Below, one piece after another: positions 2,924 through 60,014 of a DNA stretch of 64,000 bases; the stretch's first letter is position 1; every line of letters starts with the position of its first letter. This DNA comes from Convolutriloba macropyga (taxonomy: Eukaryota): NCBI RefSeq assembly GCF_964194025.1, contig NC_134482.1, forward strand, positions 1,240,001 to 1,304,000, given 5' to 3'. The position numbers and the translations under genes are program-made. The notes below the pieces were generated by a model, which worked only from the letters and a program-made list of their open reading frames with translations, did not search any database and had not been told where the DNA came from.

Positions 2924-3593
2924 CAATGAAATTCTTTTAACCACCTTGACTTCAGAGTTAAATCAACTTTGTTGCTGGCGCTGAAAAAAATGGTCTCATT
3001 TTGTTAAGCTGTCCAATTTAATGAATGTTGAAAGTTTTATAAGAGCCCTTTATATGTTTTCACCACTCCAAATAATATAAACAGGTAATCTTTTTAGTGA
3101 GGTAAAAATGGTTTTCTATTTTCTGCAAACTAACCAATAGCAATTCTTCCTGTTAGTTAAAGGTTCTGTGAGAGTATACTTTGCTAAATTGATGACATTT
3201 GGGGAATTTGTAACAAGAAAAATGGAAAAAGCTGGCATTTAAGAGAAAAACCAGGAAAAATGTTAGCTTTTTAAACACTGTCAACGTTCTGAATTAATAG
3301 TTGGTTAACTTTGATGCACTTTCTCCAATTCATTCAATAGTGCTTGAATCACCACATTACAATTAGTCGAGTAAATATTATGTTGTAGAAAACAATTAAA
3401 TGATAAAAATTAGTCGCTTTTTTACATGTTACTCCTTGCGTGTAAACTGATCGCTGCATTTTGTTTTGCGACTGGTTACTGTTGTTGATTTTTTTACTTT
3501 TTTAAAAAGTTGTTTTATATCGCAAAATAATTGACATTGCATGTCGTTTTACATCTGTTAAAATCATATGAAATTAAGGGTTCTGAGATTTTT
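2924..3593. repeat. Direct repeat, copy 2
   Basis: Matches 1-719. Confidence 0.95.
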
Positions 3594-39088: not shown

Positions 39089-42000
39089 CTACGGAGAAAA
39101 AACGCGTGCGAGAGCGGAAACGGGGCGAACGTACGTGCCGTAAGGCGTTTTTACCTTTACGACTCTTGTTTCTCCATCTCGTCCAGGTGTTGTTTCCATG
39201 ACTCTTCCCAGTGGCCAGATGCCTCTTGGTGTTTGGTCTTTCAACACCCAAACAATGTCGTTCACCTTGAGAGGCCGATCGTTGCTCTCTGGACATTTTG
39301 CTCGTCTGGTAAGAGTGGAGAGATATTCTTTCACCTAGCGTCGCCATACATGGTTCATAAGTTTCTGCGTGTTTTTCCTAGTCTTTAAGCTTGCAGGTTG
39401 CTGGTCTTCAAATTGTCCGGGTGGCAAGCTATTGAAGGGACGCTGAATGATAAAGTGGTTTTGAGTCAAGGGTTCCTCGTTGTCGGGCTCCTCAGCAAGG
39501 TTAGTCAGTGGTCTGGAGTTGAGGATTGATTCTGTTTCCACCATGATTGTTAGGAAAGTGTCAAAAGAGAGTCTTCTGGATCCTAGAATGAGAAAGAGCG
39601 TTCTTTTGGTGCTTTGGATCAAACGCTCCCAGACACCGCCAAAATGAGGTTCATATGGGGTTCAATTTCCACGTTGTATTGGCTACTGCTAAAGCTTTGT
39701 AGATCCTATCATTGTTCAATGATTTAACAGTTTTCTTAAGTTCATCAGAGGCGCCAACGAAAGTTTTCCCATTGTCACTGTAGAGAAGTTGGGGCTGCCA
39801 TCGACGACTGCAAAATCTTCTGAAGGCATTGAGAAACGTATCTGTATTTAAGTCTGAACGAGTGAACTGCACGCGTCACCATGCATGTAAAGATCAGACC
39901 ATAGTCTTTTTCTACAACGCATTTAGAATCTTCGACGTAGAAAGGTCCAAAGAAATCTACTACAGAAATAGCGAAGGGGCACTGTGTTTCTGCTGCTGGA
40001 AAGCGATAACTGGGTAGTGGAGCCAAAATTGGTTGAATTTTGTTTGTGTCAAAGCTTCGACAAAAGAAACAATGAAATCGTATGCTTGCTAACGCTTTGC
40101 GAAGACCAATCGTATGGTAACGCTGTTGTATGAAGGCTTTTGTTGCTTCTGTGGACTGATGAATACATACCTGATTGGCATGTTCCAAGTACATACGAAA
40201 AATTTTGTCCTTGGCGTGCGAGACGACCGGACCTTTTTCTAAATCCACTTTGTAAGTAATTAATTGCGAGTGGAAAAAAAACTGTCCTGAGACAGTTGGA
40301 AGATAATTTCTTGATGATTGAGTGTCTTCAGTTGTGTACTGTTGATTGTTCTTTCTTATTTTCTTTGCGCGATAAAAAAAATGAACGCTTTTGCAATTGT
40401 CAGAAGAATTTTGTTCCATTTGGAAAATTTGCTCGAATCGACAACAAGTTCAAGCGTCTTTGAGCGTCTTGTCGCTGCAGCACATGTTGCTCGTGGTTTG
40501 TTCTTCTCATTCCACGACGACTCATTTTCGCGGAGAAATTGGGGTGGCTTTAACCATTTCTGTTGAATGTCTTTAGTTTCAAGACCGCGAGTGCCGTGAT
40601 CGCAGGGATTTAGACAAGTAGAGATTTGATGCAATAGCTTAGGCGAGGAAAATTTCTGTATTTCTTGCAATCTGTTTGAAACAAAAACATTTTGTTTTTT
40701 TTGAAGCTATCCAGCCGAACACTTTTTGGCCGTCGGACCAAAGAAAAATTTGACTGAAGGTCAATGTCTTTTTTCTTTGGATCAGTTGTAGAAGGCTCAC
40801 TCCCATAACAGCGGCTTCTAATTCCATTTTCGGCACGCTTTTTGTTTAATTAGAGCAACTTTGCATTTTCCCATGAGAAAACATGCTTGTGGCGGACTGG
40901 TTTGACTATTGGTTGTACGGAGGTAAGCAACGGCTGCCATAGCTGCCATTGATGCATCCACAAATATATTATGTTGGCTCCTGGTGATTTTGCTGAAATT
41001 GTGAACAATTCTTGGTATTCGGATTTCGGGCATGGCAAATTAGCTGTTTAGAACTTTCTGGAGGGCATTGTGTAATTCTTGTGGTATCAAATCATCCCAT
41101 TTTCTTCCAAGTTTCTATATCTGCTGCAAAATCATTTGATTCTAATTGTCACAGGAGACAACAGACCGAATGGATCGGAGATTGAAGATACCAAACTAAA
41201 TATGTTTCTTTGTGTGTACACTGTTGCATCTTTAGGAAATTTTTGTTGGGGAAACTTGACAAAATCGTCAGTTGTTATGTTCCATTTTTGACCAAGGACT
41301 CTTATGATCTCTTTTGGTTTCGTCTTTGTCGTCGGAAGCGATTTCCGTGAGTACTTCTGTCTCGTTTGAAACAAGTTTTGTCAACCTGAAGGCACCATTT
41401 TTCAGGCATCTTTTTGTCTGTGATATGAATTTTTTGGCTTCTGAAATTGTTGACAGGGACGTGATATAGTCATCAATATAAAAGTGGTGTTTAATTGCGT
41501 TCAAGGCTGCTGAAAATTTGCTTTTGTTGTCCTCTGCACATTGATTTACACATAAATTTCGCAAAATGATAAACATGTTGCGCCAAAGGTTAATCTAGTG
41601 AAATGGAACTGTCAAATGGAGTTGTTTATCGTCCAAAGGAAACGAAGCGCAGACTGGTCTTTTTGTCTCACGGCAATCTGCATAAACATTCCTTCGATGT
41701 CTGACAAAACAGCAACCGGGTGTTCTCTGAATCTCAACAGAACTCCACCTAAATTATTCAGCAAATCTGGACCAGTTAGGAGATTTGAGTGCAGGGATTC
41801 ACCACAAAACTTTGAGGCTGCGTTCTCAACTCTTTTCTCTTTCTCTAGTTTGTTTGGATTAGTGACAGGATGATGAGGTAGGTACCAAATTGACTGCGGA
41901 GGTGGTTCCTGCATTTCGACCGGCTTGACAAAATTCTTATCCAAATTTGTTTGGAGTGTCTGGTTGTATTTCTGATTAAAAATTGGATCTTTTTGTAGAC

Positions 42001-42417
42001 GTTTACGTAGGCTTATAAGTTGGTGCACTGCTGAGAAGTAGTTGTTCTCAAGTTTCTTCTCAGGCTTCCAAGGAAGGCCAATTTGATATCTTTCACCGTT
42101 GTGACAGATTGAATTTTCCAGCGCAGGCACTGCTATTGTGTCCGCTGAGTTGTTTTCATTTGGTTCAGGTAATGTACCTTCAGCTTCTATTTTCCAGAAT
42201 CTTAGAACTAATTGGTCCAATGGTTCTTCTTCAGTATCTTTCAGGTAGAACGGTTGTCCCTCAGGCTTGCTTTCCCTTATTGTTTTATGAGAAAGCTCGT
42301 ACTCTCCAGCGAGAGTCCAACCAAGCTTAGTTTTAACGCTAAATGGACGCGTTTGGCTACTTGGATCACATTATCTGGGTACGGAAAAGCAAACGTATTG
42401 ACGCCAAGGAGGGCGCC
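39089..42417 (-). pseudogene. BEL/Pao pol (protease C-terminal end, RT, RNase H, integrase), frameshifted
   Basis: KTKLGWTLAG; WYLPHHPV, LLRFREHPVAVLSDIEGMFMQI and FYIDDY (RT); IFVDAS, MELEAA and LWSD (RNase H); H..H..CFFC, VDFFGPF, YSDNGKTF, GGVWER, LNSRPLT and RGIWPLGRV (integrase and C-terminal domain). Confidence 0.95.
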
Positions 42418-43619
42418 AGTAGTATAGCCCAGGTGAGCCTCATCAGTGAAAAAATAAATTATTTTGGAATTATGAAAATACTGAATTATTGAAATTGCGT
42501 GAAGTGCATTTTGCGCTGGTTTTCAGGTCTCAAAGACGATTTTTTGTTGACCTCATCTTACCTGATGAGCCTCATCATCAAAAAAACTTTGAAAAATTTT
42601 GGGAAAATACGAAAATTTTGAAGTGTTAAAATTGTTTGAAATACATATTGCACCGGGTTTCAAGTCTAAAAGTGGACATCATTTTACATGGTATTAGAAA
42701 TATATCAAAAGATTAATCAACATTGTCATCAATCAAGGCTCATCAACTAGTCGAAAACAAATTGTTGAGTGTATATGGTATTCTTTAAGTCAAATCCTCT
42801 TTTAACCCCTTATTTGATCATGCATGAGAACAAAATATAGTAATAGGCAAGGAAGTGAGTGGTTGCTGCTGTGCCTGTGCTGTTGGTAGAACTGTCTGTG
42901 TCACCAATCTATTTTTAGAATTATATGTATACTATGACTAACTACTAAAGTCACTGCCGAAGGTCATTTTACACGAGTAGTCGTCGTATTCGATTGTGAT
43001 CGGGAGACAGATCGTTCGAGAGTGTCAATGAAGTATTTTTGAGTAAGTTTACATGTTCAACTGTCTGCATTGGGTGGTTTTGTTATTACAGTTTAACACG
43101 GTACTTGTATAGCAATAGGGCAAAGTTATAAGAATTTGTTTGAGTTTCAGTTAGAGTTTGATTTGTAAACAAAGTATGTCAGAGATTGACGATTGTTCCT
43201 TCTTTGTCTCTTCTCAGAAAGACGTTTTGTAGCTGTTTGTGTGAACACTTGTTACTCTACTTAAACAATACAGAGATATTAAGGAAGTAAATCATCTTTT
43301 TATGTCTTGCGCTTTACCTAACAGATATAATTTATTTGGACAAAAACTTGAGTACTACCGGGAAAACATATTGAATATATCAGCTTGAAACTTTTCTCAG
43401 AAGATACTTTTAACAATCAAATGAGAGAAAACTAGAGAGAAACCAACAAACAATCAAGACATTAAAAAATCAACAAACAATATTTTATTGCAATATTAGT
43501 AGTTTATTGAGGTTGAGCAAATGCAACTCACAAGATTATAACTGTTTGAGGTATTAAGAGACTCAATTAGAGTTTACGTTTTTTGGAGCAAGATATGAGC
43601 TGACAGGCAGTGTCTCAAG
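42418..43619 (+). repeat. Left terminal inverted repeat (extended)
   Basis: Reverse complement of 53959-55341; near-identical from ~42598 inward. Has two ~125-bp subterminal units versus three on the right. Confidence 0.93.
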
Positions 43620-44187
43620 TCTAAAAGTTAACTTTTTGCGGACATCATTTTACATGGCATTAAAAATATATCAAATGATTCATCACCATTGCCATCAATC
43701 AAGGCTCATCAACTAGTCGAAAACAAATTGTTGAGTTTATGTGGTATTCTTTATGTCTGTTTCTATATATCAGTCCGCTCAAATCCTCTTTTTACCCCTT
43801 ATTTGATCATGCATGAGAACAAAATATAGTAATAGGCAAGGGGGTGAGTGTTTGCTGCTGTGCCTGTGCTGTTGGTAGAACTGTCTGTGTCACCAATCTA
43901 TTTTTAGAATTATATGTATACTATGACTAACTACTACAGTCACTGCCGAAGGTCATCTTACACGAGTAGTTGTCGTATTCGATTGTGATTGGGAAACCGA
44001 TCGACCGAGAATGTCAATGAAGTACTTTTGAATAAGTTTACATGTTCAACTGTCTGCATTGGGTGGTTTTGTTATTACAGTTTAACACAGTACTTGTATA
44101 GCAATAGGGCGAACTAATAAGAATTTGTTTGAGTTTCAGTTAGAGTTTCATTTATAAACAAACTATGTCAGTGGTTGACGATTGTTT
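43615..44187 (+). repeat. Second, more diverged copy of the inner TIR (probable original left TIR)
   Basis: Direct repeat of 42660-43197 with more substitutions and indels; runs into ATGTCAGTGGTTGACGATTG. Confidence 0.9.
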
Positions 44188-44460
44188 TTCTGTGACTTTT
44201 CTCACGATATTACGTGTACAGAAAAACGTTATGTAGTGGCTTGTGTGAAAACTTACGACTCTACTGGAACCTATGTAACGGTAAAACTTTTCAAAAAAGA
44301 TAACTTTGTGATCAAACCCAAGACAATAGAAACAATTGCAACAGTGATGGTTTCAGGTTCAACCAGAGAATTACATTATCTTTAGCTGAAAAAAGATCTT
44401 TAGCTATTATCTCAAAGCTACAATTCACTCTGTGAAAAACTAAGGACTGGACAATAAGAA
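44165..44460 (+). pseudogene. PC4-like ssDNA-binding protein of the Polinton-like element
   Basis: MSVVDDC..DFSHDITCTEKRYVVACVKTYDSTGTYVTVKLFKK resembles the KRYV..Y..lf pattern of PC4; frameshifted. Confidence 0.45.
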
Positions 44461-44612
44461 CAGCCTATCAAAAAAGAACGCAATAAGATTACGGGAAGAA
44501 AACGACGTTATCAGTTTGCATCCTCACCGGAGACGAATGGCGTTAATTCATCTCAGGTTGCTGATGATCAAAGAAGAAAGCGAAGTTTTGAGGGTTACAC
44601 ACAGTATTAAAA

Positions 44613-45220
44613 ATGGTTGAGGCAATGTTTGAACAAACACCTGAATTTTTTCGACAGTTTCAAAAGAAATTTCACTATTTCATCAGCAGAAGTGAGCCAA
44701 TAACTGATACTAAAGAAATCAACAACAGTTTTGTTCACAGTTTGCATGAGAATAACAGCTTTTGTAGAATCAAAAATCAACATTATCATGTTATTGCAGC
44801 TTTGGATCAAGTAACAGAGGCGTTCGAAAAATTTCTTCAAAGCCCTATTCAATACCTCGTCTACACACATGTTTCAGACTTCTACTCCACAAAACACAAC
44901 CTGTCAACATCACTTTTCACGGTGAAATTTTTGAGAAGTTGCAGCAAGCAGTCATTTACAATCACCAACATCAGCTAGATTTATATAGCTCCAAAAGAAA
45001 GCTTCCAAATATCTTTGAACTGGAGACCGTCAAAGAGAATATTCATGTTCAAACTGATTTCATACCAACTTGTACGTTCAACCAGTTTTTAAGTATTTAT
45101 CAGAACAATTTTTATGTAGAATTTTCAAAAATTATTGATAATATTATTAGTGGATATGGCTCCCTGAATGTTGATAATGAGAATGTGAAAATTAACTTTC
45201 GATTTGAATGGAAAAGTTAA
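44613..45220 (+). pseudogene. Polinton-like hypothetical protein (two frameshifted ORFs)
   Basis: Overlapping ORFs 44613-44978 and 44939-45220; converges on the protease gene. Confidence 0.5.
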
Positions 45221-45310
45221 TCCCACTTTTTTATTGAAAACCGAGCCATCCAGCTTCAAAGGAAAAAAAGGTTCTAATTTAAGAAAAAAAATTAAGTTGA
45301 TTGATCTGTT

Positions 45311-45743
45311 CTACACAATATGCTTTGCAAATCGTAGTAAATCATCATCATTCATGTAGTGTACATACGGATAGCTATTTGTGAAAATAATATGCGCAAT
45401 ATAAATACAAAAAAGTCCACACAGTTTTGAGTTTGGGCTCAGAATTGGCTGTAATCTGAGACATTGAACAACTTCTTCTTCGAAGTAAAACTGCAGCAGT
45501 CGAGTGTATACAAAATGGTAACATTCCAGAGCTTGCCCAAGTGGATCAGCAAAGTATATTGTTTTTTTTGTAATTACAAATCAGTAGCTAATGACTTCCC
45601 GATGCTGTTGATACTGAGGCATTCACCACAGCAAAGCAATTATCTGGCAGTCTTGGAAAATTATCAGCCGCAAAAACTCCGCAAAATTTGTGCTTCAGAT
45701 GAAAACATTTACTTACTAGATAACTTATCTCAAAATTATCCAT
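45311..45743 (-). pseudogene. Adenain-like cysteine maturation protease
   Basis: MDNFEI...FCGVFAADNFP...VVNAS..SGSH*(W)..YFADPLG...LCGLFCIY. His/Asp/Cys triad present; one stop and one frameshift; ATG overlaps the MCP stop. Confidence 0.9.
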
Positions 45744-47058
45744 CAACCGGATATGTAATATCCGAGTTTTTGGTAACTTTTCGTTCAGAGTTGACGTAAA
45801 AAGTTGAACTTCGTTCGCCTAGGAATAAAATTTTAACGTTGTCACCCAAAGGTGTTCCAACAGTGAGCTCAACTGAAATTGAACAATTTGTTAATTCAGG
45901 ACGAATAAAATCGTGTGCAGCCTCCTGTGTTGAAGTAAGGTCGAAGGCCAAATATAAAGTGATTTGGATAATTGGCTAGGGGAATGACATGACCACCTTT
46001 ATCAAGAAAATCTAGAGCTTCAAGCGTGTTGAAGTAGACTCGTTGATCTGAGGTTGTTGAAATTGGTGTTCCAACAACCGGTAGTCCATTTCGATAAATC
46101 ACTATTTCAAATTGTATTTCTGGTAATGGAACGGATTCGTTCTGTTAGTTCCTAAATATGACTGATTGGTTGATATTGCAATAATCATTCTTTGAACCGG
46201 TTTTTTCGAGAAGATATCTTCTTGACTCCAACTTCGAAAGACAGCAGTGGCAACAAAAGTTCTGGGCGACACCTCCGCGTGCCGATAGACAGCTGGTGTA
46301 TCAAGCAAAGTTTTTTCAATCGCAGACAACACATGATCAGCCACGGTCATTTTGCGCACGTAAAGATTTGCTTCAACAATTTTTACTCTGTATTGTTTAT
46401 TAGACTCGGATATGACGGTAAAATATATTGGTGACCTTCAGAAGGAGATGCGTAGGGTAACACCACTTAGAAGATGTTTGTCACTGGTCAATATATCACT
46501 GGCGGGTTTTCCAAGAAGAAAACATTCCAGAGAGTCAGCAACTTAAGCCTTCCGTGCAGCAACATCAGTAGCTCTGTTGTCAGCTCCATTTATTTTAGCC
46601 GGTTCGTCCTCATAATAATAGCCTTGACAAACAAACCAAGTGTTTTTGGCTGTTCTGCTGGATGAGAACTCTGTTTCCATGAAAGCCTAGTGTGCGTAGT
46701 TGCCATTTGTATTTGACAATTTAACACCGTTTGCCGAGACTGTACACTCTGAAAACAGAGAGTGCAGTGCGTTATTGCTAAAATACGGCAAATCTGTGTT
46801 TGTTGCATCAGTACCAGTTCTCAAATCAGCGTCATTGGTTCTCGTGATTTTGCATTTTGTTTCAGGTAGAAACTTTTGCAAATCAATAATGTTGTTCCTG
46901 TCACCAACAACTTCAAATTCCAGCATTGGACCATCCGGTGAATATGATGGACCAACCTTTTGTGTAAAAGCATTGTCAAAGGTGATAAGGATAGGCTGCT
47001 TTTCAAACAGGTCTAGAGTTGTGTGTGTTGCCTCTGCTGGCAATAAGTTAGTATTCAT
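45736..47058 (-). pseudogene. Major capsid protein (Polinton PY / hexon-like double jelly roll)
   Basis: LDLFEKQP, GPMLEFEV, NNALHSLFSECTV, YAH, NPFHYQKYNL, FDLTSTQ, SVELT..PL..V..L.LGE in the expected order; several frameshifts. Confidence 0.9.
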
Positions 47059-47181
47059 TTCTCACTTTGGAAAAAAAAATCTGACCGACTTCTGAGTAAC
47101 GGTTGTTTTCTCTGAATATTTGCGGGGTTTGACCGGAACACTCCGTTTCTGTTTGTTATGAACTTTGCCAGCACGAACACC

Positions 47182-47487
47182 TCATATTCGAGCTCTTGAG
47201 CCACCAACTTTTGATGGTGCCACCAACAAACCTCTTGAGCCACCAACAGTTGATTTGAGTGCTTCTTTAGGACTCTTCTTTTTGGTGACAACGTTATTAA
47301 CTTCTGGTGCCGCCTGTACAAACAGTTCTCTTCCAATTTTTTTAGCAACAGGCCACAAAAACTTTTTAGCTATCGGTATGGCCGCCCTGCCAATTCCAGC
47401 TGCTAATGCCCCAAAACCACTACCTCGTTGACGATAGTGTCCTGCAAAATATGGTGAGACTGATTGTTGTTGATAGTACGCTTCCAT
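47182..47487 (-). CDS. Small basic/amphipathic virion protein with YYxxQ..QRGSG motif
   Basis: MEAYYQQQ..YRQRGSGFGALAAGIGRAAIPIAKK; typical small gene between the minor and major capsid genes; the QxGxG site is a candidate protease cleavage site. Confidence 0.7.
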   Translation of the reverse strand: MEAYYQQQSVSPYFAGHYRQRGSGFGALAAGIGRAAIPIAKKFLWPVAKKIGRELFVQAAPEVNNVVTKKKSPKEALKSTVGGSRGLLVAPSKVGGSRARI

Positions 47488-48331
47488 TTAATTAAATTTT
47501 CTAGAGTTCAAAGTCAGAATAACTTTCCCTGTTCCCGTAAACGGAACAAATTTGCCAGTTTTGATTCTCAACGCAACCTCAATACACTGAAAATTGTTTG
47601 ACAACAATTTCTCATATTCCAGATTGCTAAAAACTATTCTATAAGTTCAGTTTCGTAGAAGGCTACCGTTTTTCAGGCGTTGTTTTGAATCAATGACACA
47701 AATCTCCAATATGCTGATAGTCAATTATGTTATTGTATACAAATATCAATTGTTTTCCTGCAAGCAGATCAAACGGGTAATCGGCGACAAAAGCTTTCGC
47801 TTCTCCGTCACTCATTGCCAAATTGTCAAAGTAATCTATCATTTTATAGCCAAAATGAGTACCTGAGCCATCTTTGATTCCTCCAAAGCCCATAATTCTT
47901 AGTATTTCTCCGTCAGGAAACGTAATTCCTTCATTTTTGCCAAAGAACAAAAGCAAAACTCCTGTGATTTTATTATACTGATGACTGAAATTAGTTAAAC
48001 CAGTCGCTGTCTTGATGGCTTTTATCAGGTGTTCTAAGTTCTCATAGCTTCGAGCATTGATCAAGACTGTCTCCCCTTTGTATGGTTTTGAGACAGCACC
48101 AGATGGAATACTTCTTTGATGGTTTTTGTTACCTTCAGAGGAGTACTTTGTGATTCGAGTGCTATTAACCTGGTTGATTCTGGATGGGAAGATAATTTCA
48201 CTCAAAGCTACTCTCCAATCACCTTCCAGGCTGATTTCTTCATTGAAAAAGTTTTTGAAGTTAGCCAAAGAATTCTCTGGAAAGATGTCCATGGAAGCTG
48301 ATGAAACTAAATGTATAGTAAACTCATTCAT
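47488..48331 (-). pseudogene. Minor capsid protein (penton-like, Polinton PX)
   Basis: MNEFTIHLVSSASMDIFPENSLANFKN...LEGDWRVALSEIIFP; IFVYNNIIDYQHIGD; C-terminal IEVALR..GKFVPF..GKVILTL after a frameshift. Confidence 0.88.
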
Positions 48332-48349
48332 GTTCTGTGAACGCTTCGC

Positions 48350-49273
48350 TATTATCAGCAACCTTCACTAATTCCAACTGATAGAACTTACCCCTGATTG
48401 GATCTGATTCGAATCAATTAGGCTGTATGTTGGAGGGTTTATATTTGGAATATCGTAAACTTCAAACACTTCGTTGGTAAATAACCTGTCTGTTTATAAC
48501 CTTTTCGGAAGAGTAAATCAACTTTTGATATTCTAACAAATTCACTCATTCGAAATTTTGGTCGACTTGCTAATTTCTCGGACGCAATTGCGTTTAATGA
48601 TAACAGATAAGGGACGTCTTTTTTGGTGACTTTGTTCGGAGCAATTTTTGTTACACGGTTGATGCGTGAGTTTATTGTTTGCACAAAATTTTTCAACTGA
48701 GAGATGTGTGAATATGTCAATTTTTCTTCCAGATACTTGTAAATATTGTTCTTTAAAGAGCGGATGTTCCTTTCAGCAAAAGCAGACTTCTTTTCGCTGA
48801 AAATTTGATAAATTTCAATGTTTTTCTTCTGGCAAAGTGTTTTGAAATTTCCCTTAAAGCTGTTTCAGTATCCACCCAAACTTTTTTCGGCCGTTTATGC
48901 TTAATCATTTGTTTGAAGACTTTAAGCTGTTGTTGTTGCATATTTTGGTTTGAGTGGTTCGACACATAGATAGCGTGAAAGACAGTCAACGGCAATCAAA
49001 AACTACTTAATACCTGCGTTTTTTTTGACAGTTTGTCCACGTGTGCCAAGTCAAGAGACCAAATTTCATCATGGTCATATGCAATAACTTTCAAAACTTT
49101 CAAAAAAACTTTTTCGAAATCCTTTATATTTTGTGTGAGCATTCTTGGTCGCTAGAAACTGTTTCACTTTGCGAGGTTGTAAATTTGCGTTTTTTTGTAA
49201 ATTTTTAACGCTTACAAACGCAGCTGGTCCTTTTGTGTACATCGACTGCAGCAATTTTTCTTCACTCGTCGTA
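48350..49273 (-). pseudogene. Retroviral-like (c-int/rve) integrase
   Basis: IWSLDLA, LIAVDCLSRY, KKVWVD and SAFAERNIRSLK (D-D-E); then TINSRINR, KFRMSEFVRISK..FRKGY, EVF.V..PPTY.L. Confidence 0.92.
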
Positions 49274-50014
49274 AGATTCCCATAGTTTTTCCTTCTGTTC
49301 ACTTGCTTCGTATGGAGTTTCAAAACCTTCTTCTTTTTCGTCAGTGTCACTGCTGCTGTGGGGAGTTTCCGGCCGGACTGTTGCTGCTTCTGGTTGTCGA
49401 GTTTTTGAGGCTTTTGAAACTTCGAACGCTTTTGTTTCTGTAATCTCTTGACGACTTTTTTTCTTTTTGTTGTGGTTTCTGGAGAAATTTTCCAGGTCGA
49501 AGTTTTTGGCATTGCTGTTTATTACTGGTTCCTTTTTTATTTGTAACACTTTTAATAATTCAAAATAATCGGGACTGTCAATTTTCCTTGTTGGTTGTTG
49601 TAAATTGTACAAGAAAACGAATGCGGTTATGTCAGTTGGACTGTTGTCAATGAGTAACTTATCGACCTCACCAATAAACACACGATTAGATATTTTGATT
49701 AGATCTACAATATTTTCACACTTTAAATATTTTGAATGACGCAGAAGAGATGATAATGTTTTTAGGACTTGTACCGCCCGTCTTTTTGAATTTTTGACCC
49801 AATTTTTGGCAACAACATCAACACCAGGGTCTTCCTCCGACAAATTTTCATTGATGTGCGCTTCACTGTGTTAATTTGGTCGCATTCTATTTATAAGTGA
49901 CAGATGTGCCGATTTGTGTTTAACTTCAGGATCTTCTAAGACCTGAGTTTGGTATGGTTGATTTTTGAAATAGACTTATTTTGGAACTAAAATAAACTCC
50001 TCGGCAGTTGACAT
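49262..50014 (-). pseudogene. Polinton hypothetical protein (MSTAEEFILVPK...KLWESYDE)
   Basis: 193-aa open part 49262-49843 plus a frameshifted N-terminus; located between the ATPase and integrase. Confidence 0.55.
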
Positions 50015-50299
50015 TTTCTACAATTTTATGGTTGATTCAAATACTGGAAGCAAAAATGAATATAATGATACGAACCAAACCAAAACCTGTTTTTGTGAGC
50101 AGTAATGCTCTCTTCTTTTCAACCGGAACGTTTTTACGAAGAACGGTCCTGAAAACGATTTCATGTTGCATTAAATTATTGATCTGATGTTTCACATGTC
50201 CTCTGATGACGATGCAAAAACATTCACTCAGTACCAATAAAGTATTTTCATCAGAAGTGCGAAGAAATTTTCTAAACTCAGGATCAGATAGAAGTACCA

Positions 50300-50973
50300 A
50301 TCGCTTTAGTATAGAGAACTTTTCTTGTTCATTTGATATGTGAGTTATATCGGCTTTGTCTGAAGGTATGTAGAACACCGACGGCCCAGGCACTGTAATG
50401 TTTGAGCAAAAGCAAAGACAATCGGAAGTTTTTGGATCGAGATCAATCAATAAGTGTCCAAATGTTTCTCTTGTTGCTATTTCATAACAATTTTTCAAAA
50501 AATGAGAAAGATTCAGTTGCTTACCGAGAAACTCGACTTGCTGAACGTCACGTGGTGATTCGAACAAAATGATATAAGGTGTATTCAAGTTTTTTGTTCG
50601 TGACCATACTTTGCTGGTAAAGATTGTGCTTCACATAAATGACATTGATGTTCTTGTGTCGACCCGCGGTAGCCAGCTTGACAAACTCTTTGTCATTAAA
50701 AATTTCCTCGCAAGAATTGTCAAATCTAAGTAAACAATTTTCAGTATTTTGAAAAAAGTCCAAGTTTGTGGATTTTTTGAAAACAATATTTGAATGCTGG
50801 TCAACTTCTGAGTATATTGGTTGCATTTCGTGGTAGAGAAAAATAACATTTTTAAATTTTGGATAAAAGGTGTTTCCTGCAATTATTCTGAAAATTAAAT
50901 TCGTTTTACTTCAACCCGATGCACCTACCACGGCCATGAAATTTCTGTCACTGGTAGATATTATTTGGTTCTT
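50300..50973 (-). pseudogene. A32/FtsK-like packaging ATPase
   Basis: MAVVGASG*SKT (Walker A), LLRFDNSC (degenerate Walker B), ATAGRHKNINVIYVKHNLY, IILFESPRD..Q, FGHLLIDL. The ORF continues into a small downstream gene ending at 50037. Confidence 0.92.
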
Positions 50974-51418
50974 AATCGAGGGTTTGATAAGATATATCCA
51001 ACTAAACTCGAAAGAATCGAAATCCAAACTGATGGTTCCTCACAAGTTGGTTTAAGTACAATCAATTTCACAATGCAAAGAACTATTAGCATCAAAATTC
51101 GAAACATTTGAACAAAAAAGACAATTTCCGACCATGGTAATGTAATCTGAATACAGAGTTTCCAAGTAGATTTACCACTACTTTCTTTTTCGAAAAGAGT
51201 CTCTTGTACAACTTGATCAACTGTTGCTTGTTCCCTCGCAAAAAAATGAGTAAAAAAATCATTTATTGAATTTTTTAATGATTCACATAGAACAGTTCAT
51301 AACAATTAAAATCACTCAACAATTCATTCATGTGCACCATTAAACATGCAGGTAATCTTGTAGTCTTTTCATAATACACAATTTTTTTGATCTTATCCGT
51401 GTTTACAAGTTCTTTAGT

Positions 51419-51754
51419 TTATTCAGGCAGCATTTCGTCATTTTTATCAACTTCTTTACCAGTTGGATGTTTCGATATCAATAGAAGTTTTGGAGGCGAG
51501 ATTTTGCGTTGACAGTCTGACATTTTGTTTTTTCCACTGAACAAAAGTTTCGATGTAGAAAACCAAGTGTGTAATGAACGAATTTCCTCCTCTGTCAATA
51601 ACACCCTAACTTTTCTCAGACGAGCTTGACTACCACTTTTTATTCCTTCTCCTTTGCAAATTGAAAGATTCATTGTCCCCTCCTTCGTGATCAAGGCGCA
51701 AATAGTCGAATTCGCTGACAAGGGTGCTTCCACTTTCGTCAATTCCTCTCTCAT
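51419..51754 (-). CDS. Polinton hypothetical protein
   Basis: 111-aa ATG ORF in the co-oriented gene train; no motif recognised. Confidence 0.4.
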   Translation of the reverse strand: MREELTKVEAPLSANSTICALITKEGTMNLSICKGEGIKSGSQARLRKVRVLLTEEEIRSLHTWFSTSKLLFSGKNKMSDCQRKISPPKLLLISKHPTGKEVDKNDEMLPE

Positions 51755-51843
51755 TAGTCAACCACTCAAAATAGAAACAGGCTTTTTCCCGTGCACAGTG
51801 ATTATTGAAGCTACCACGCTCTGCTGAGTTATGATTTGCACTG

Positions 51844-52239
51844 TTAACTGTAAAAAAAATTGTAAGATATTTTGGGACGCTCAAGAGTATTTAAATTGAC
51901 TACTGAACAATCGAGCAACTCCAATAAAAGTTGAGACTTTTCAAAACCTTTAGGGTAGTAAACCGCTCTCGGGTTTCTTAAGCGAACGATTTGAACAATT
52001 TGTGTCAGATAAATGTAAGGATAGTTTTCAGAGTTCCTATCTAAGCCATGTAAGTTCTTAAATAACCAATTGAATGAAGTTTTCTGCGGAATTGTCAAAA
52101 CGGAAAATTTTGATGGTGGTGAAAACAAAACACAATCGTTGTAATCTTCAGTACATATACCAAGTTCTTTAACAATAAACTTTTCTTTCCTTTGACGGAA
52201 ACCTTCAAGGTCTAACACAACTGTTTTACTGCTTAACAT
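51844..52239 (-). CDS. DEDD/DnaQ-like 3'-5' exonuclease-family protein
   Basis: VVLDLEGFR..KFIVKELG..NWL.KNLHGL..YPKG.EK; the start overlaps the stop of the upstream gene. Confidence 0.6.
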   Translation of the reverse strand: MLSSKTVVLDLEGFRQRKEKFIVKELGICTEDYNDCVLFSPPSKFSVLTIPQKTSFNWLFKNLHGLDRNSENYPYIYLTQIVQIVRLRNPRAVYYPKGFEKSQLLLELLDCSVVNLNTLERPKISYNFFYS

Positions 52240-52628
52240 TCCAACAAGTGATAAATTTTTGAGTTGAAAACTTTAATATACAAACAAAAAAGAATTCCTG
52301 TCAGATGTCCAGTGAAACAACTATTAAGATTACAGGGAGGCATGTACGAGTAGCCGGGTCCTTCATTGTAGAGCTCCTGGATGAAACCACCAGCGTCATG
52401 CAAAATTGCGTGTAATCGTAGATTTTTGGAGTTGTTTGGGTACGAATCTAAAGAAGAGTTATCTATTCCAATAAGTCCTCCGTATGGTTGAAGTTTCAAA
52501 GAATTATCATAATCAAAGATTTCCTTTGGACTGAAGTATTCACTTGCTGCTAAGAAGTAGTTCAGTCTTACTGAATTATTTGGGTATGTTGTGGCTAATA
52601 ACAAATACTTCTCATGAATGTCTAACAA
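52233..52628 (-). CDS. Phospholipase A2-like protein
   Basis: PYGGLIG.DN...LRLHAILHDAGG..GPGYSY; HD dyad following a Gly-rich loop. Confidence 0.5.
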   Translation of the reverse strand: MLDIHEKYLLLATTYPNNSVRLNYFLAASEYFSPKEIFDYDNSLKLQPYGGLIGIDNSSLDSYPNNSKNLRLHAILHDAGGFIQELYNEGPGYSYMPPCNLNSCFTGHLTGILFCLYIKVFNSKIYHLLEC

Positions 52629-53958
52629 TATCTACAAACATTTGGTTTATCAAGATGCAATGGGAGTTAGATTGAAGCCGACTGAAACGTTTAAAAAAGG
52701 AACGTTTCTTTTTTGGAGAAATCAAATCAATCTAATTCATAGAGGAAGAGATTGCAAAACTATTTGACTCCTGGAGTTGAAAGCGTTCAGAGTAATTAGA
52801 TAGTTTTTCATATTTTCCTACATATTTCGGAAAACTGTAGCACTTTCATACAAACTGTCATTCATTAGAAAGTCAGCAACACCAAAAACAAATTTGCCTA
52901 TTATTTCAGTTTCATAGAACCAATGTGAACATAAGGTACTGTAGCAACAATAACAACCAAATTAAAAGGTTCTATATTGATTCTAAAAATAGCTTTGCGG
53001 AAAGATAAGAGTTTTTGGAGAATACTCTAATAGTTTCAAATCTGTGTTTATTTTAGATAAGGAGAGCACATGTTGCTTAAAACTGCAGACATTGAAGAAA
53101 TTATACCCTTGACCATGTGCATTAATCTCTGTAGATCATAAACTTTTTGGCAGTAGGCATTTGTATTCGATTTTTCGCTCAAACCAGATTCTTTCAATAC
53201 TTTATATATAAACTATTCATATTCTGTCTCATTTGCTGACAATTATATTGATATTTTTTGCTCTTTGATAATTCTTGTTAATAAAAACTGTTCAGATTAC
53301 ATCACCAGTAATTAACTCAATTTTTATTCCGTATTCTTTTAAAAGTCCTTTAACATTTTTTTGGTATATTTTCCAGTCTTCAACAAGTTATTCAAGTCCA
53401 TTTACACGTGTGCAAACAGAAGGAGTTATCACTGACTTCTTACAATGTTTCCCATTGCAATCATACTAAAAAAAATCTTCTACCAGTAGTCGAACAATTG
53501 CGTACGAGACTTTAAGAAAAGAAAATATTGTGATCGTTCAGCAAGAGTATCAATGTAAAGAATGGAAAACTGTGAAACACATAGCATTGCCTGTTGTTAC
53601 TTTCGATTTCATTCAATCTGTTAGATTTGAAAAAGCTTCACTTAAGGGAGCTCAATATACTCTGGAATTTGTAGCATGTTATACTCGTAAGTTTATATTT
53701 GAGAGATGACATACTCGCGTTCTGAGAGATGACATTAGAAAAATTTTCTGTGATTACGATGTTCAAGAAATACCTATCTACGACAATCAGGAAGAGTTTT
53801 GGCAGAAATTGGAACTCATTGAAAACTTTTGGAAAATCCCTGCTTTTATTGAAAGTCCAGATTCAACGATCAACTTAAAAAACTCGATAACCTGTACAGT
53901 AATTACAGCAAGTGTAATCAAAACACCCGAATGCAGTAGGCTTGTGGCAACCAACGGT

Positions 53959-55341
53959 CTTGAGACACTGCCTGTCAGCTCATATCTTGCTCCAAAAAAC
54001 GTAAACTCTAATTGAGTCTCTTAATATCTCAAACAGTTATAATCTTGTGAGTTGCATTTGCTCAACCTCAATAAACTACTAATATTGCAATAAAATATTG
54101 TCTGTTGATTTTTTAATGTCTTGATTGTTTGTTGGTTTCTCTCTAGTTTTCTCTCATTTGATTGTTAAAAGTATCTTCTGAGAAAAGTTTCAAGATGATA
54201 TATTCAATATGTTTTCCCGGTAGTACTCAAGTTTTTGTCCAAATAAATTATATCTGTTAGGTAAAGCGCAAGACATAAAAAGATGATTTACTTCCTTAAT
54301 ATCTCTGTATTGTTTAAGTAGAGTAACAAGTGTTCACACAAACAGCTACAAAACGTCTTTCTGAGAAGAGACAAAGAAGGAACAATCGTCAATCTCTGAC
54401 ATACTTTGTTTACAAATCAAACTCTGAAACTCAAACAAATTCTTATAACTTTGCCCTATTGCTATACAAGTACCGTGTTAAACTGTAATAACAAAACCAC
54501 CCAATGCAGACAGTTGAACATGTAAAATTACTCAAAAATACTTCATTGACACTCTCGAACGATCTGTCTCCCAATCACAATCGAATACGACGACTACTCG
54601 TGTAAAATGACCTTCGGCAGTGACTTTAGTAGTTAGTCATAGTATACATATAATTCTAAAAATAGATTGGTGACACAGACAGTTCTACCAACAGCACAGG
54701 CACAGCAGCAACCACTCACTTCCTTGCCTATTACTATATTTTGTTCTCATGCATGATCAAATAAGGGGTTAAAAGAGGATTTGACTTAAAGAATACCATA
54801 TACACTCAACAATTTGTTTTCGACTAGTTGATGAGCCTTGATTGATGACAATGTTGATTAATCTTTTGATATATTTTTAATACCATGTAAAATGATGTCC
54901 ACTTTAAGACTTGAAACCCGGTGCAAAATGTATTTCAAACAATTTTAACACTTCAAAATTTTCGTATTTTCCCAAACTTTTTCCCAAAATTTTTTTGATG
55001 ACGAGGCTCACCAGGTAAAATGAAGTCTACACAAAATCGTCTTTGAGTCCTGAAAACCAGCGCAAAATGCATTTCACGCAATTTTTATAATTCAAAACTT
55101 TTTCAATTTTTCCAAAATTTTTTAAAGTTTTTTTTCGATGAAGAGGCTCACCAGATAAGATGAAGTCAACAAAAAATCGTCTTTGAGACCTGAAACCCAG
55201 TGCAAAAAGCACTTCACGCAATTTTAAAACTTTGAAATTTAATGTTTTTTCAAATTTTTTCCAAAAAAAATCACTGATGAGGCTGACCTGGGCTGATTAC
55301 AAAATGACAACCACTAAAACAGCAGTGAAACTTCCCGACTA
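53959..55341 (-). repeat. Right terminal inverted repeat region
   Basis: Reverse complement of 42418-43619; three ~125-bp subterminal units. Confidence 0.92.
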
Positions 55342-55359
55342 ACAACAAGAACCAGTCAA

Positions 55360-58300
55360 ATTTTTCATCAATGTTGAATTTTGCAAGTCAGCTTTGAAGC
55401 CTATTTATTCAACAACTTGTACTAACCGTTTGAGAAAAGAAGCAAAAGATACAAAATTCTGTTTGTTGTAATCATTGTTCGGATGCCAGGCTTCCAGCCG
55501 ATTGATGAAAGTGTTCAGAAAAACGCTGGGATCTTCAAAAAGATCCATAAGCTCTTTCAAAGTAACCGCGTAGTTAGCTGGGTCACACGAGTCAGCTTGA
55601 ATTATTTCCTTGGCTTTTCCTACGACCGAGTTCTGTAAGTATGTTGTACGGTGTGTATCCGTAAGGCTAGTATTATTTTGGACTAGGTAGAAAAATTGTT
55701 TATCCACTAATGGTATTTCAGTGGGTTTCCATTGAAATTGGATACTGTTATTGGTGGAAGTTTAATGGACTTTTTGTTTGTAATTTGTAAATTAAAATTG
55801 TTTTCAATTTACACCTGGGCTCACCTGGCTCACTTGGGCTGATTACAAAATGGGAACCACTATAACAGCAGTGATACTTCAAACGGGACTGTTTCTGTTT
55901 GTAATTCAGTTCGTGGCTGAAATATTTGCTTTCCCGGAAAAGACCAATTCGGAACTTGTTTAGAGTTTCCCGAAACGTTTGGTTGGCTAAAATGTAGAGC
56001 AATGGGGGATGGATGGCTGTTTGGTAATTTGTAAATGGATTTTCCGGAGTAAAGGGTAAATTAGGTGACTGTGATGATGTACAGCAAACAAGTTTGGTAC
56101 CTTGGCTGTTGAGTGTTGTATTGGAGGCTTGGAGGTTGTATTGGTGTTGAGGCTCATAACAAAGACATTGATTGAAACCGTCTTAAAATTACGGTCTCTT
56201 CAACCAATTCTCTATTATCCGGCGCAAAATTTCCGGTGGTTTCGAAGATCTTGGAGGCACTGGAGGGGAGACAACGCTGGTAAGGTTCTTTACTGTCATG
56301 TTTTTATGCTCTGAATTTTGGGAAACCAGTGTCAATTGCTGCGAATTGAGTTGTGTTCGTGATGTCTATAGGACGCAGCTAATGTCATTTTGTACTCGAG
56401 TTGACGATTGGCTCAATTGACCATAATCGTCGAGACTGTTGAATTGTAATTCCAGCTTCTCAAGATGAGAGATTAATTTCGATTTTCGTTTCATTTCTGA
56501 GTTTATGCTACTAGAGCATACTTTTTCCATCATGATTCCATCGATGTTTGTCTTCAGCTCTTCAACGCTTTCCTTGATTTTGTTGATCAATAAACAAAGA
56601 GTGCGGAAGTTTTTTCTCTGCTCAACGGAAGTCTGTAGGAGATAAAGCTGATTTTTCATGTTCAGTCCTTTTGAACTTGTTCAGCGCGTATTCTAACTTG
56701 TGGCTGTTTTCTTTTGTCGTCTTGATGAAAAGGTTGCAGGCGACTTGTAAATGTTCTGTCTTATGTAAAGTAAAGTTAAAAAATTGGCTGGAGCTTAACG
56801 GAGCGACGACCTTTTTGGAAATAAAAAATCTCTTATGTTTATGTAGGCTAATCAGCCTAGCTACTTTCGTTCAAAAAAACGAGGCAACTTTTCACAAAAA
56901 TAAGAGTCCTAAATGAGGTTTTCTGTGATGCTAAATCTAGCTAAAAATTTGCGGTTGATTTTTTGAATTGATTTTTTGAACAAGACCAAATAATTGCTTT
57001 AAATTGTTTTTTGAGTTTTGTTTTATTATTACATATATGGTTTCTGAATCGTTATTGTACAAACAATAACTGATTTTTAATCGCAATAAACGTACCGAAA
57101 CAATTAAAATTAAGTGGGTCTCTTTCTTTCTCGTTAAGTCTTAAGAACGAACAAAAACAAAAAAGAACAAGGAAAATTAAGTCTAATTTGCTACGTCTGT
57201 GGAAACAAAAAATGGGAATTCAAATTAGGGTGCGACTAGGCAACGTGAGCTACAGACACGCAGAGAAGACTGGTTGTTTAAGAGCTGGCGCTAGTTTGAA
57301 TCTTTTTTCCAAAACTGTCGAATTCTTTACAATTTTTTTGAAGTTGAAGACTGCTACCATCAAATTGCTTCTGTTTGTTTTTCTTCAGTTTGGTAACGTC
57401 TGCTACCTATGATTTGCTCATCTTCACTTTGGTGACTACTAGTATGTTATACGGTGTGTATCCGTAAGGCTAGTATTATTTTGGACTAGGTAGAAAAATT
57501 GTTTATCCACTAATGGTATTTCAGTGGGTTTCCATTGAAATTTGATACTGTTATTGGTGGAAGTTTAATGGACTTTTTGTTTGTAATTTGTAAATTAAAA
57601 TTGTTTTCAATTTACACCTGGGCTCAACTGGCTCACTTGGGCTGATTACAAAATGGGAACCACTATAACAGCAGTGATACTTCAAACGGGATTGTTTCTG
57701 TTTGTATTTCAGTTCGTGGCTGAAATATTTGCTTTCCCGGAAAAGACCAATTCGGAACTTGTTTAGAGTTTCCCGAAACGTTTGGTTGGCTAAAATGTAG
57801 AGCAATGGGGGATGGATGGCTGTTTGGTAGTTTGTAAATGGATTTTCCGGAGTAAAGGGTAAATAAGGTGACCGTGTTGATGTACAGCAAACATGTTTGG
57901 TACCTTGGCTGTTGAGTGTTGTATTGGAGGGGAAAAATTCCATCGTTTGGTTCTTGCCCTTGATTTCCATTGCTAAAATGAACTCCAGTTGGGTAATGTG
58001 GATTCTGAAATTGTTGAGAAATGCTTGTTTGCGCTAATATGGGTAAGGATATTGCTGACGCCAATTTCCCGCTGTTCTGTCTTTCACTTATTTGAACAGC
58101 TGCAAATTGAGTTTTTGAAACCGTTTGTGCAGTTGAACTTCGATTGTTGTTAAATTGCAGGGGATTGTGACGAACGTTTTTGTAACAATATGGATTTGGC
58201 GTGGTTTCATTTGTCACTCAATTTGATCTTTTTTTTTGAGTGAAATTGACGCTGAAGCATTTGCTCATTTAAATTGCATGAACTTGACGTTTGGTATGTA

Positions 58301-59380
58301 TTGGTTTTGTTAACTGAGCAGTTATCTTGAAATGAGTTTTGTAAATCAAACGCAAGACGTTGTAAGCTTTGATCTTTTCTTTTGTTATTTAAATGAACAG
58401 AAAACTTTTTTTTCGTTTAACTGTGGCACTTGCTGTTTGATTCGTTGGAATATTGGGCAATGTGATCAACTTTGAACTAGAGAACTAGTTCATTTCTCCA
58501 ATTGATGGGTGAATTAGTTCCGGCTGGTTATCAATAGATGCAACAGGAAATAAGACTGCAGTTTGATTCAATTGATTGGAGGGTTGTTGAATTGAAGCGA
58601 ACTAGTTGAAAGTGTTCTCTTGTTCTCTGAGAACAACATTGTGTTCTGGGGATTGAGGATTACTCAAAACAAATCTGTCTTGATTGTTTGCTCTGGATAA
58701 CTAACAGAGCTGATGCTGGTGTTGAGGCTCATAACAAAGACATTGATTGAAACCGTCTTAAAATTACGGTCTCTTCAACCAATTCTCTATTATCCGGCGC
58801 AAAATTTCCGGTGGTTTCGAAGATCTTGGAGGCACTGGAGGGGAGACAACGCTGCTAAGGTTCTTTACTGTCATGTTTTTATGCTCTGAATTTTGGGAAA
58901 CCAGTGTCAATTGCTGCGAATTGAGTTGTGTTCGTGATGTCTATAGGACGCAGCTAATGTCATTTTGTACTCGAGTTGACGATTGGCTCAATTGACCATA
59001 ATCGTCGAGACTGTTGAATTGTAATTCCAGCTTCTCAAGATGAGAGATTAATTTCGATTTTCGTTTCATTTCTGAGTTTATGCTACTAGAGCATACTTTT
59101 TCCATCATGATTCCATCGATGTTTGTCTTCAGCTCTTCAACGCTTTCCTTGATTTTGTTGATCAATAAACAAAGAGTGCGGAAGTTTTTTCTCTGCTCAA
59201 CGGAAGTCTGTAGGAGATAAAGCTGATTTTTCATGTTCAGTCCTTTTGAACTTGTTCAGCGCGTATTCTAACTTGTGGCTGTTTTCTTTTGTCGTCTTGA
59301 TGAAAAGGTTGCAGGCGACTTGTAAATGTTCTGTCTTATGTAAAGTAAAGTTAAAAAACGGCTGGAGCTTAACGGAGCGA
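55360..59380 (-). pseudogene. BEL/Pao gag (DUF1759-like), partly duplicated and decayed
   Basis: SIKLPPITVS.FNGNPLKY..W, TYLQNSVVGKAKEII, Y..LKELM..FEDP; upstream N/Q/S-rich and coiled-coil-like segments. Confidence 0.8.
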
Positions 59381-60014
59381 CGACTTTTTTGGAAATAAAA
59401 AATCTCTTATGTTTATGTAGGCTAATCAGCCTAGCTACTTTCGTTCAAAAAAACGAGGCAACTTTTCACAAAAATAAGAGTCCTAAATGAGGTTTTCTGT
59501 GATGCTAAATCTAGCTAAAAATTTGCGGTTGATTTTTTGAATTGATTTTTTGAACAAGACCAAATAATTGCTTTAAATTGTTTTTTGAGTTTTGTTTTAT
59601 TATTACATATATGGTTTCTGAATCGTTATTGTACAAACAATAACTGATTTTTAATCGCAATAAACGTACCGAAACAATTAAAATTAAGTGGGTCTCTTTC
59701 TTTCTCGTTAAGTCTTAAGAACGAACAAAAACAAAAAAGAACAAGGAAAATTAAGTCTAATTTGCTACGTCTGTGGAAACAAAAAATGGGAATTCAAATT
59801 AGGGTGCGACTAGGCAACGTGAGCTACAGACACGCAGAGAAGACTGGTTGTTTAAGAGCTGGCGCTAGTTTGAATCTTTTTTCCAAAACTGTCGAATTCT
59901 TTACAATTTTTTTGAAGTTGAAGACTGCTACCATCAAATTGCTTCTGTTTGTTTTTCTTCAGTTTGGTAACGTCTGCTACCTATGATTTGCTCATCTTCA
60001 CTTTGGTGACTACT
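55638..60014. repeat. Near-identical tandem duplication (55638-57440 and 57441-60014)
   Basis: Identical ORFs at 56366 and 58941 and at 57188 and 59762; the left copy lacks ~790 bp (57930-58716). Confidence 0.95.

Follow-up and report, generated by a model that had tools for sequence, protein, structure and literature searches.

Helper-dependent satellites and defective-interfering genomes, among them adeno-associated virus (AAV) and satellite viruses with a capsid of their own, borrow replication functions and keep their cis-acting ends. The element described here lies in a stretch of 64,000 nucleotides of the Convolutriloba macropyga genome (NC_134482.1, positions 1,240,001 to 1,304,000; from here on the window, whose numbering is used throughout) and is a copy, now decayed, from a Polinton family of 12.9 kb that we call family A. 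Animal Polintons or Mavericks (adintoviruses) have, in the available text of PMC8097293 and PMC8502044, inverted repeats starting with (AGT)2, a 6-bp target duplication, a retrovirus-like (rve) integrase, an A32 ATPase, an adenovirus-type protease and a major capsid protein (MCP) of double jelly-roll type under purifying selection, and family A has the same, the fold of its MCP being predicted from a model. Unlike them, A and a related family, F, have neither the protein-primed DNA polymerase (pPolB) nor the terminal protein that Polinton pPolBs bear at their N terminus (PMC11161782, in the part available).

Other capsid-coding, integrating elements without a full pPolB are Tlr1 and the Polinton-like viruses (PMC4028283, PMC13215967, PMC11296320 and PMC4405056, as far as their accessible text goes). 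These encode a substitute replicase, either a superfamily 1 (SF1) helicase fusion or a primase-helicase, whereas A and F have none and every one of their genes has a homolog in pPolB-bearing relatives. In the Pannagram preprint (bioRxiv 10.1101/2025.02.07.637071), the available part of which leaves the mobilization open, Polintons of Pieris mannii and of a second insect group that are flanked by inverted repeats and lack polB have stayed mobile. The insect copies differ little from complete ones and bear LINE or Gypsy sequence as cargo, whereas A is 23-29% diverged from any putative helper found, forms several selected waves and is paired to helpers by its ends. The accessible part of PMC11071296 also mentions genomes that have neither PolB nor integrase and whose virion proteins are of adenovirus class. 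We found no description of a selected polymerase-less Polinton lineage paired to helpers by its ends in the literature searched, the supplements of which could hold unremarked examples. Polinton surveys are anchored on pPolB (the count in PMC10748475, in its available text, is restricted to pPolB linked to integrase), so that capsid-coding lineages without polymerase would be missed by design.

A multi-copy family without polymerase

Family A is a real, multi-copy lineage under selection. The genome searched comprises 1.18 Gb and the searches scored the best candidates. With a 300-nt probe from the repeat, 237 candidates were obtained, many of them in pairs ~11 kb apart, and the best 40 were scored; barring insertions, duplications and small deletions of their own, the nine sister copies examined first are collinear with the copy in the window. 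At its true termini the family has AGTAGTAAG and then a nearly perfect palindrome. A 32-nt end pattern had 99 exact matches, paired mainly at distances of ~12.6-13.1 kb or of 19.0 kb. Family A makes up the short class, save two 13-kb pairs that derive from family B, and the 19-kb class is family B itself. Exact 6-bp target duplications flanked 15 of 15 A pairs and six of eight more (21/23, copies with one detected end being left out of the counts), and of the remaining two pairs one was off by one base and one had no match. A tree of 34 copies shows waves: A1 with 24 copies (tips 0.1-2.8%), A3 with seven (~2.5%), A2 formed by the window copy and C3:79.9M (~4.5%), and one lone copy (9%). The stems of A3 and A2 have a support of 1.0; the outermost A1 node, to which a half-covered copy attaches, is unsupported.

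No Pfam polymerase, helicase or primase was matched among 34 frames of the window. Pfam PF03175 lists 77 other loci in this genome yet misses the polymerases of B and of a further family, C, and was rejected as the sole test; the retest was therefore made by tblastn with those polymerases and their neighbouring genes, and gave nothing at E<=1 in 59 stretches comprising 29 A copies, the window included (one of the 29 is internally deleted and one half covered). In six further, older A copies the PC4-like gene runs directly into repeat and terminus. Family A contains no open reading frame (ORF) of at least 55 aa without a B or C homolog, except two antisense frames; neither Pfam nor the ORF inventory revealed a substitute replicase (SF1 helicase fusion or primase-helicase), and no unassigned ORF is long enough for one. 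The largest gap without assigned gene in the window element measures ~850 nt (52640-53491), in agreement with the original prediction, made from the letters of the window, that a ~3-kb polymerase gene would find no room.

Several long A copies were considered as carriers of pPolB and rejected. The extra length of C7, C95 and C181 corresponds to insertions (retroelement-like ORFs could be read in C7 and C95), that of C2:78.9M, C9:58.6M and C4:2.75M to duplications, and a 26.8-kb pair at C2:32.2M, taken for a long A copy, proved to be a B copy.

The original prediction had left the choice between an internally deleted copy and a lineage that lacks the polymerase and is replicated in trans. That a single ordinary Polinton had undergone a private internal deletion would agree with the private damage seen at both ends of the window copy; it is refuted by the sister copies, which share the polymerase-less layout and integrated independently, with target duplications of their own. 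The many ~12-kb copies with 6-bp duplications and without pPolB that were anticipated for a true lineage do exist (21/23 exact pairs, 0/29 copies with pPolB), and replication in trans is what their sequences suggest. We consider it probable that A is a helper-dependent satellite, which would make its own capsid and integrase and be copied in trans by the polymerase of a co-resident helper.

One A and one B copy (L053/L054, L040/L042) are inserted in (TAGTAGT)n-like repeats resembling their own end motif. A target word GTTAGT common to one A and one B copy was discarded as a signal, both sites lying in simple repeat, and an end motif near L130, a single match, was set aside.

Polymerase-bearing relatives and gene trees

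Family B has the same core gene order as A plus a polymerase of 1,217 aa in which all exonuclease and polymerase motifs are readable. Its MCP is 76% identical to that of A as protein and 29% divergent as DNA. The named protein records in the clusters to which the capsid proteins of A and B belong are from the acoel C. macropyga. A search with the B polymerase region gave 6,998 first-look candidates, the best 131 of which were scored, and brought up B', an older subfamily, as well as family C (17.4 kb, with pPolB), whose ends are unrelated to those of A. Compared with B, C is closer to A in MCP (86-87 vs 76% identity), ATPase (76 vs 64%), penton (74 vs 56%) and orf187 (52 vs 23%), with the exception of the PC4-like gene (33 vs 42%). 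Among the elements fetched, the closest one with pPolB differs from A by 23% in MCP DNA. Both B and B' were rejected as parent of A, an 11-gene tree being part of the evidence.

Family F (14.1 kb) was found through a capsid cluster 87% identical to that of A and has the same layout, with orf187 adjoining the PLA2-like gene and long repeats extending into the PC4-like gene. Ten of ten further F copies had exact target duplications and no match to the B or C pPolB or to the genes next to it. Both families differ from Polintons in being shorter (12.9-14.1 kb vs 17-19 kb in the helper families) and in having long repeats (~1.4 to 2 kb) that begin with the end of the helper. Complete elements are frequent in both B and C and no older than A1 or F.

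It could be argued that A and F are repeated dead-end deletion products of pPolB-bearing parents absent from the assembly, in which the selection described below would have arisen. Exogenous parents need not be integrated, the searches scored top candidates, and the polymerase-lacking butterfly copies are, in the accessible part of the Pannagram preprint, highly similar to complete ones. However, the same rearranged layout (orf187 beside the PLA2-like gene, long repeats including the start of the PC4-like gene) would have to recur in four A and two F waves, and no pPolB-bearing element lay within 23% MCP DNA divergence of A among those fetched, so that we take this origin to be highly improbable.

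The concatenated tree of 11 genes in 12 copies groups A, F and C at 100 and rejects A+B (approximately unbiased test, p-AU 1e-64). Single-gene trees, from which rows with short matches were omitted gene by gene, are mosaic: A groups with F in orf208 (96-98), the PC4-like gene (94), the PLA2-like gene (81) and MCP (71), F groups with C (99-100) in the DEDD-like gene, ATPase, integrase and penton, which form a swapped block, and the protease tree weakly joins A and C. Because of this mosaic a single loss of pPolB for A and F is plausible and not proven. F and C share the central block, from the DEDD-like gene to the penton, at 92-99% protein identity in young copies, the flanking genes being 42-73% identical, and this is an exchange of a module, in either direction, between a polymerase-less family and its likely helper.

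At its N terminus the B polymerase (L025:3262-6915) bears C2H2-like zinc fingers, and it contains an insert resembling endonuclease VII (Pfam E 6.5e-4); by its domains it recalls the HNH-bearing pPolB2 class in the available text of PMC10748475. The Polinton load of this genome is very large: first-look candidates numbered 3,891 with PF03175 and 6,998 with the B polymerase region, figures that are not copy numbers.

Shared ends, selection and the probable source of the polymerase

In their first 100 nt, young ends of A and young PLA2-side ends of B are 98-100% identical, and against C and F ends the former are at noise level. Older A ends are 90-96% identical to one another, those of A2 86-92% to B', and cross-type pairs 81-92%. 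Two end types were distinguished among 80 ends. Type 1 comprises 45 ends of A1 (one a variant), 16 of B, four of the B deletion pair described below, two of one A3 copy and two of the lone old copy; type 2 comprises seven of A3 (five loci), one of A2 (a variant) and three of B' (two loci). The left remnant of the window copy is of type 2. Divergence of the MCP within families pairs up in the same manner, with 1.6% in A1 and 1.8% in B, and 4.7% in A3 and 5.3% in B'. Since two end types are common to families that are 29% apart, exchange took place after those types arose. Most F ends match C over ~75 nt, one variant differing by paired hairpin changes. Copies with the same ends and a pPolB, in which the original prediction would have seen the source of a deletion, are thus present as family B; their 29% difference in MCP DNA, and the fact that they are not the closest relatives of A, make them look like helpers and not parents.

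Among the genes examined, only those that A lacks travel with its end type. The integrase and orf208 of A group with C/F and not with B, so that the constraint on the ends would most simply come from the genes that only B has, the polymerase with its terminal protein. As the terminal protein is the N terminus of pPolB, both would have to come in trans. Where the two elements are active within the same cell, the pPolB and terminal protein of the helper would prime on the AGTAGT end common to both, and the satellite would package and integrate itself with its own proteins. Recombination during co-replication would renew the satellite ends from the PLA2-side end of the helper, and selection would keep them compatible with it. 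In contrast to AAV-type satellites, the likely helper is here an endogenous Polinton related to the satellite, what is borrowed would be a protein-primed polymerase, and an integrase is encoded by the satellite itself.

The capsid genes of A have been maintained. Net pN/pS (the ratio of nonsynonymous to synonymous divergence, taken pairwise as between- minus within-subfamily values without consensus) was 0.02 (0.00-0.05) for the MCP of A1 vs A3 and 0.06-0.07 for the sets of virion genes between A subfamilies, the A1 vs A2 set giving 0.07 (0.04-0.10). It was 0.20 for the integrase of A1 vs A2 and 0.15 for all genes, and 0.10 over ten genes between young and old F. Within A1 the pN/pS was 0.64, and 0.91 between the window copy and its nearest sister, the latter reflecting private decay. 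Virion and integrase genes are therefore under purifying selection between polymerase-less subfamilies, and A has, judged by the genes alone, the functional capsid genes of its own that mark a satellite virus (0.02-0.07). Barreat and Katzourakis take selection of this kind as evidence that spread occurs by particles (PMC8097293, in the part available), and in A it probably reflects particle formation too. Capsid genes under selection in an element unable to replicate on its own argue for a role of particles in the way Polintons spread in animals. As to the features that define a Polinton, pPolB is absent from the A and F copies checked, and an integrase with 6-bp duplication, (AGT)2-ended inverted repeats and MCP, ATPase and protease are present in A; A is likely a Polinton derivative working as a satellite.

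The ends of A fold into a ~250-nt hairpin (z -26), and between the PC4-like gene and the protease gene lies orf208, for which a HUH Rep-like domain is predicted. Family A could then be an autonomous hairpin replicon, its own protein nicking the terminal hairpin and a host polymerase copying it in the way of parvoviruses. In the structural model of orf208, of low confidence (pLDDT, the predicted local distance difference test, of 55), the N-terminal domain matches best RepB of pMV158 (Foldseek E 4.7e-3; VIA Z 6.3, root-mean-square deviation 3.5-3.7 over 91-93 residues, Z <8 being common), followed by the Rep domains of nanoviruses, circoviruses and parvoviruses. The protein has 394 relatives at E<=0.001, and among the 40 full-length ones the histidines H45, H57 and H59 are kept in 39, 38 and 37. 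In F, orf208 is under selection (0.24). However, no tyrosine is invariant among the same 40 (Y85 in 22, Y116 in 28), there is no helicase, and orf208 is weakly constrained in A1 vs A3 (0.84, confidence interval 0.41-2.21), an exception found in one comparison. The gene is also present in the pPolB-bearing families B, C, D and G. The hairpin was rejected as something special to the polymerase-less family, the same one occurring in B, and F has only a short hairpin; the orf208 of A is sister to that of F though their ends differ. An AAV-like flip/flop was not detected either, the hairpin loop being inverted in one of 50 scorable ends (80 found). Such a replicon seems to us unlikely. The gene orf208 is shared with pPolB-bearing families and comes with neither helicase nor flip/flop. 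A more likely role for it than that of replacing the polymerase is that of an accessory factor, for origin binding or excision, which these Polintons have in common, and this conserved HUH-like gene would be a candidate for the step by which a Polinton is released from the chromosome. An assignment of orf208 as a caspase (Atlas match 0.88, below threshold) was rejected, being at odds with the fold search. Family E (L079/L099) has a pPolB directly after the protease, and orf208, the PC4-like gene and orf187 are not detectable in it, so that this trio is not universal.

Two 13-kb copies derived from B (C5:14775856-14788932 and C13:47731566-47744582; L060-L063) are the mirror image of family A. 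They have kept pPolB, and one common junction removes ATPase, integrase, penton, core and MCP; their target duplications differ. Such copies, integrated separately without an integrase of their own, would suit a bipartite partnership in which capsid halves (A and F) and polymerase halves are complementary segments that need each other. The junction was seen, however, in only two copies among 39 matches scored, and complete B and C are common and as young as A1 and F, so that the helper does not need the satellite. An obligate partnership is accordingly very unlikely, and the satellite reading fits better, because complete copies of similar age exist.

Several points weigh against the dependence of A on a helper of type B. 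The age match of the end types is imperfect, with C1:82.4M, the most decayed copy, and the A3 copy C2:47.3M carrying the "young" type, and the B' type rests on three ends from two loci; these discordant copies and the thin B' sample weaken the argument on timing, not the sharing of ends. The shared ends could be a by-product of recombination without functional need, F and C having also swapped their central block, and the first 30 nt of family D are B-like, so that a B-like end could be ancestral. Single-gene tests reject A+B for orf208 only, not for MCP, ATPase or orf187, and the monophyly of A+F is rejected by the ATPase (p-AU 0.003). A closer pPolB-bearing relative may lie among the candidates below the best ones scored, and the putative satellite system is known here from genome sequence alone.

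A more specific history, to which we would give an even chance, is that a clade of satellite polintoviruses goes back to a single, ancient loss of pPolB and lives on by capturing the replication origins of whichever helper is active, A having switched to B and re-acquired B ends wave after wave, and F having stayed with C. If true, a virus-satellite system would be recorded wholly within one animal genome. With the natural pairs A/B and F/C, recognition of family-specific ends by Polinton polymerases can be tested directly, and the pairs offer an answer to the question of the Pannagram preprint of how polB-lacking Polintons move.

Genes, decay and surroundings of the window copy

The inverted repeats claimed by the original prediction are real: 42432-43619 pairs with 53959-55152 at 96.4% identity over 1,198 nt. 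The left repeat (42418..43619, + strand) is built from repeat units of 140 nt plus the sequence upstream of the PC4-like gene, and has been privately extended by a copy of the right-end sequence 53959-54425. At its outer edge AGTAGTATAG (42418..42427, +) remains of the terminus, of the older end type common to A2/A3 and B', and the next ~340 nt, with the terminal hairpin, are missing. A private duplicate of the inner repeat (43612..44265, +) runs into the PC4-like gene and is absent from sister copies. The right repeat (53959..55360, - strand) has lost its outer ~290 nt with the hairpin and the AGTAGT end, together with 0.9-1.2 kb of the BEL/Pao-type long terminal repeat (LTR) retroelement hit by the insertion, as judged from four intact sister copies. 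The right end thus lies at ~55360 and not at 55341 as had been proposed, and with both termini damaged the target duplication of this copy is not scorable.

All the genes that had been named are found between the repeats in the order given, and the virion and integration kit described as complete is there as genes, in a decayed state with 13 in-frame stops in the aligned genes and many frameshifts; the longest internal ATG-started ORF is of 213 aa. Pfam support for protease, integrase and ATPase was obtained on intact sister copies of family A. On the plus strand the broken, small PC4-like gene (44188..44607) is followed by the frameshifted orf208 (44613..45232; H45, H57-x-H59). On the minus strand come the broken adenovirus-type maturation protease (45314..45743; PF00770, E 5e-8 in a sister copy and 0.004 in the window) and the MCP (45739..47058), whose model (pLDDT 82) predicts a double jelly roll and matches the capsids of PBCV-1 and Sputnik (E 1e-15 to 2e-15) and the mavirus MCP (E 2e-13). 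Then follow, on the same strand, a small basic core-like protein (47065..47487), conserved in B, C, D, E and F, and the broken penton-like minor capsid protein (47491..48331; net pN/pS 0.12), which has a positional homolog conserved in all families. Next are the broken rve integrase (48330..49505; PF00665, E 1e-6 in a sister copy), orf251 (49265..50014), which overlaps the integrase start, orf101 (50070..50327) and the broken A32-type packaging ATPase (50319..50970; PF04665, Pox_A32, E 3e-6 in a sister copy). The minus-strand series ends with three small genes, orf100, a B147-like gene and orf99 (50973..51754), all with homologs in C, the broken DEDD/Maelstrom-like gene (51642..52239), a sub-threshold lead (Atlas 0.89), and the PLA2-like gene (52236..52640). 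On the plus strand again, orf187 (53491..53997) adjoins the PLA2-like gene in A and F; in families B, C, D and G its homolog is flanked by the PC4-like gene and pPolB.

The penton-, core-, PC4- and PLA2-like labels, the last two taken over from the original prediction, are based on position and motif, as no relevant match was found in Pfam or in sequence searches of solved structures. Searches of the latter kind with MCP, PC4-like, DEDD-like, PLA2-like and orf208 alignments and the B polymerase had the zinc fingers as their sole relevant match, and no relatives were found among viral contigs. The sequencing runs listed included no RNA holder, and contigs from two of the runs were uninformative.

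The left and right parts of the BEL/Pao-type retroelement, a label read from the sequence, occupy 39775..42417 and 55361..55990 (both -). About 15 kb to the left of the element, 26074-27662 (-) holds what is left of the decayed pPolB of another Polinton; the remnant is 26-34% identical to the polymerases of B and C, and no further Polinton gene was found adjoining it. The flanks contain several families of tandem repeats of 140-175 nt and near-identical local duplications (55638-57078 vs 57441-59652, and 116-415 vs 3032-3331).

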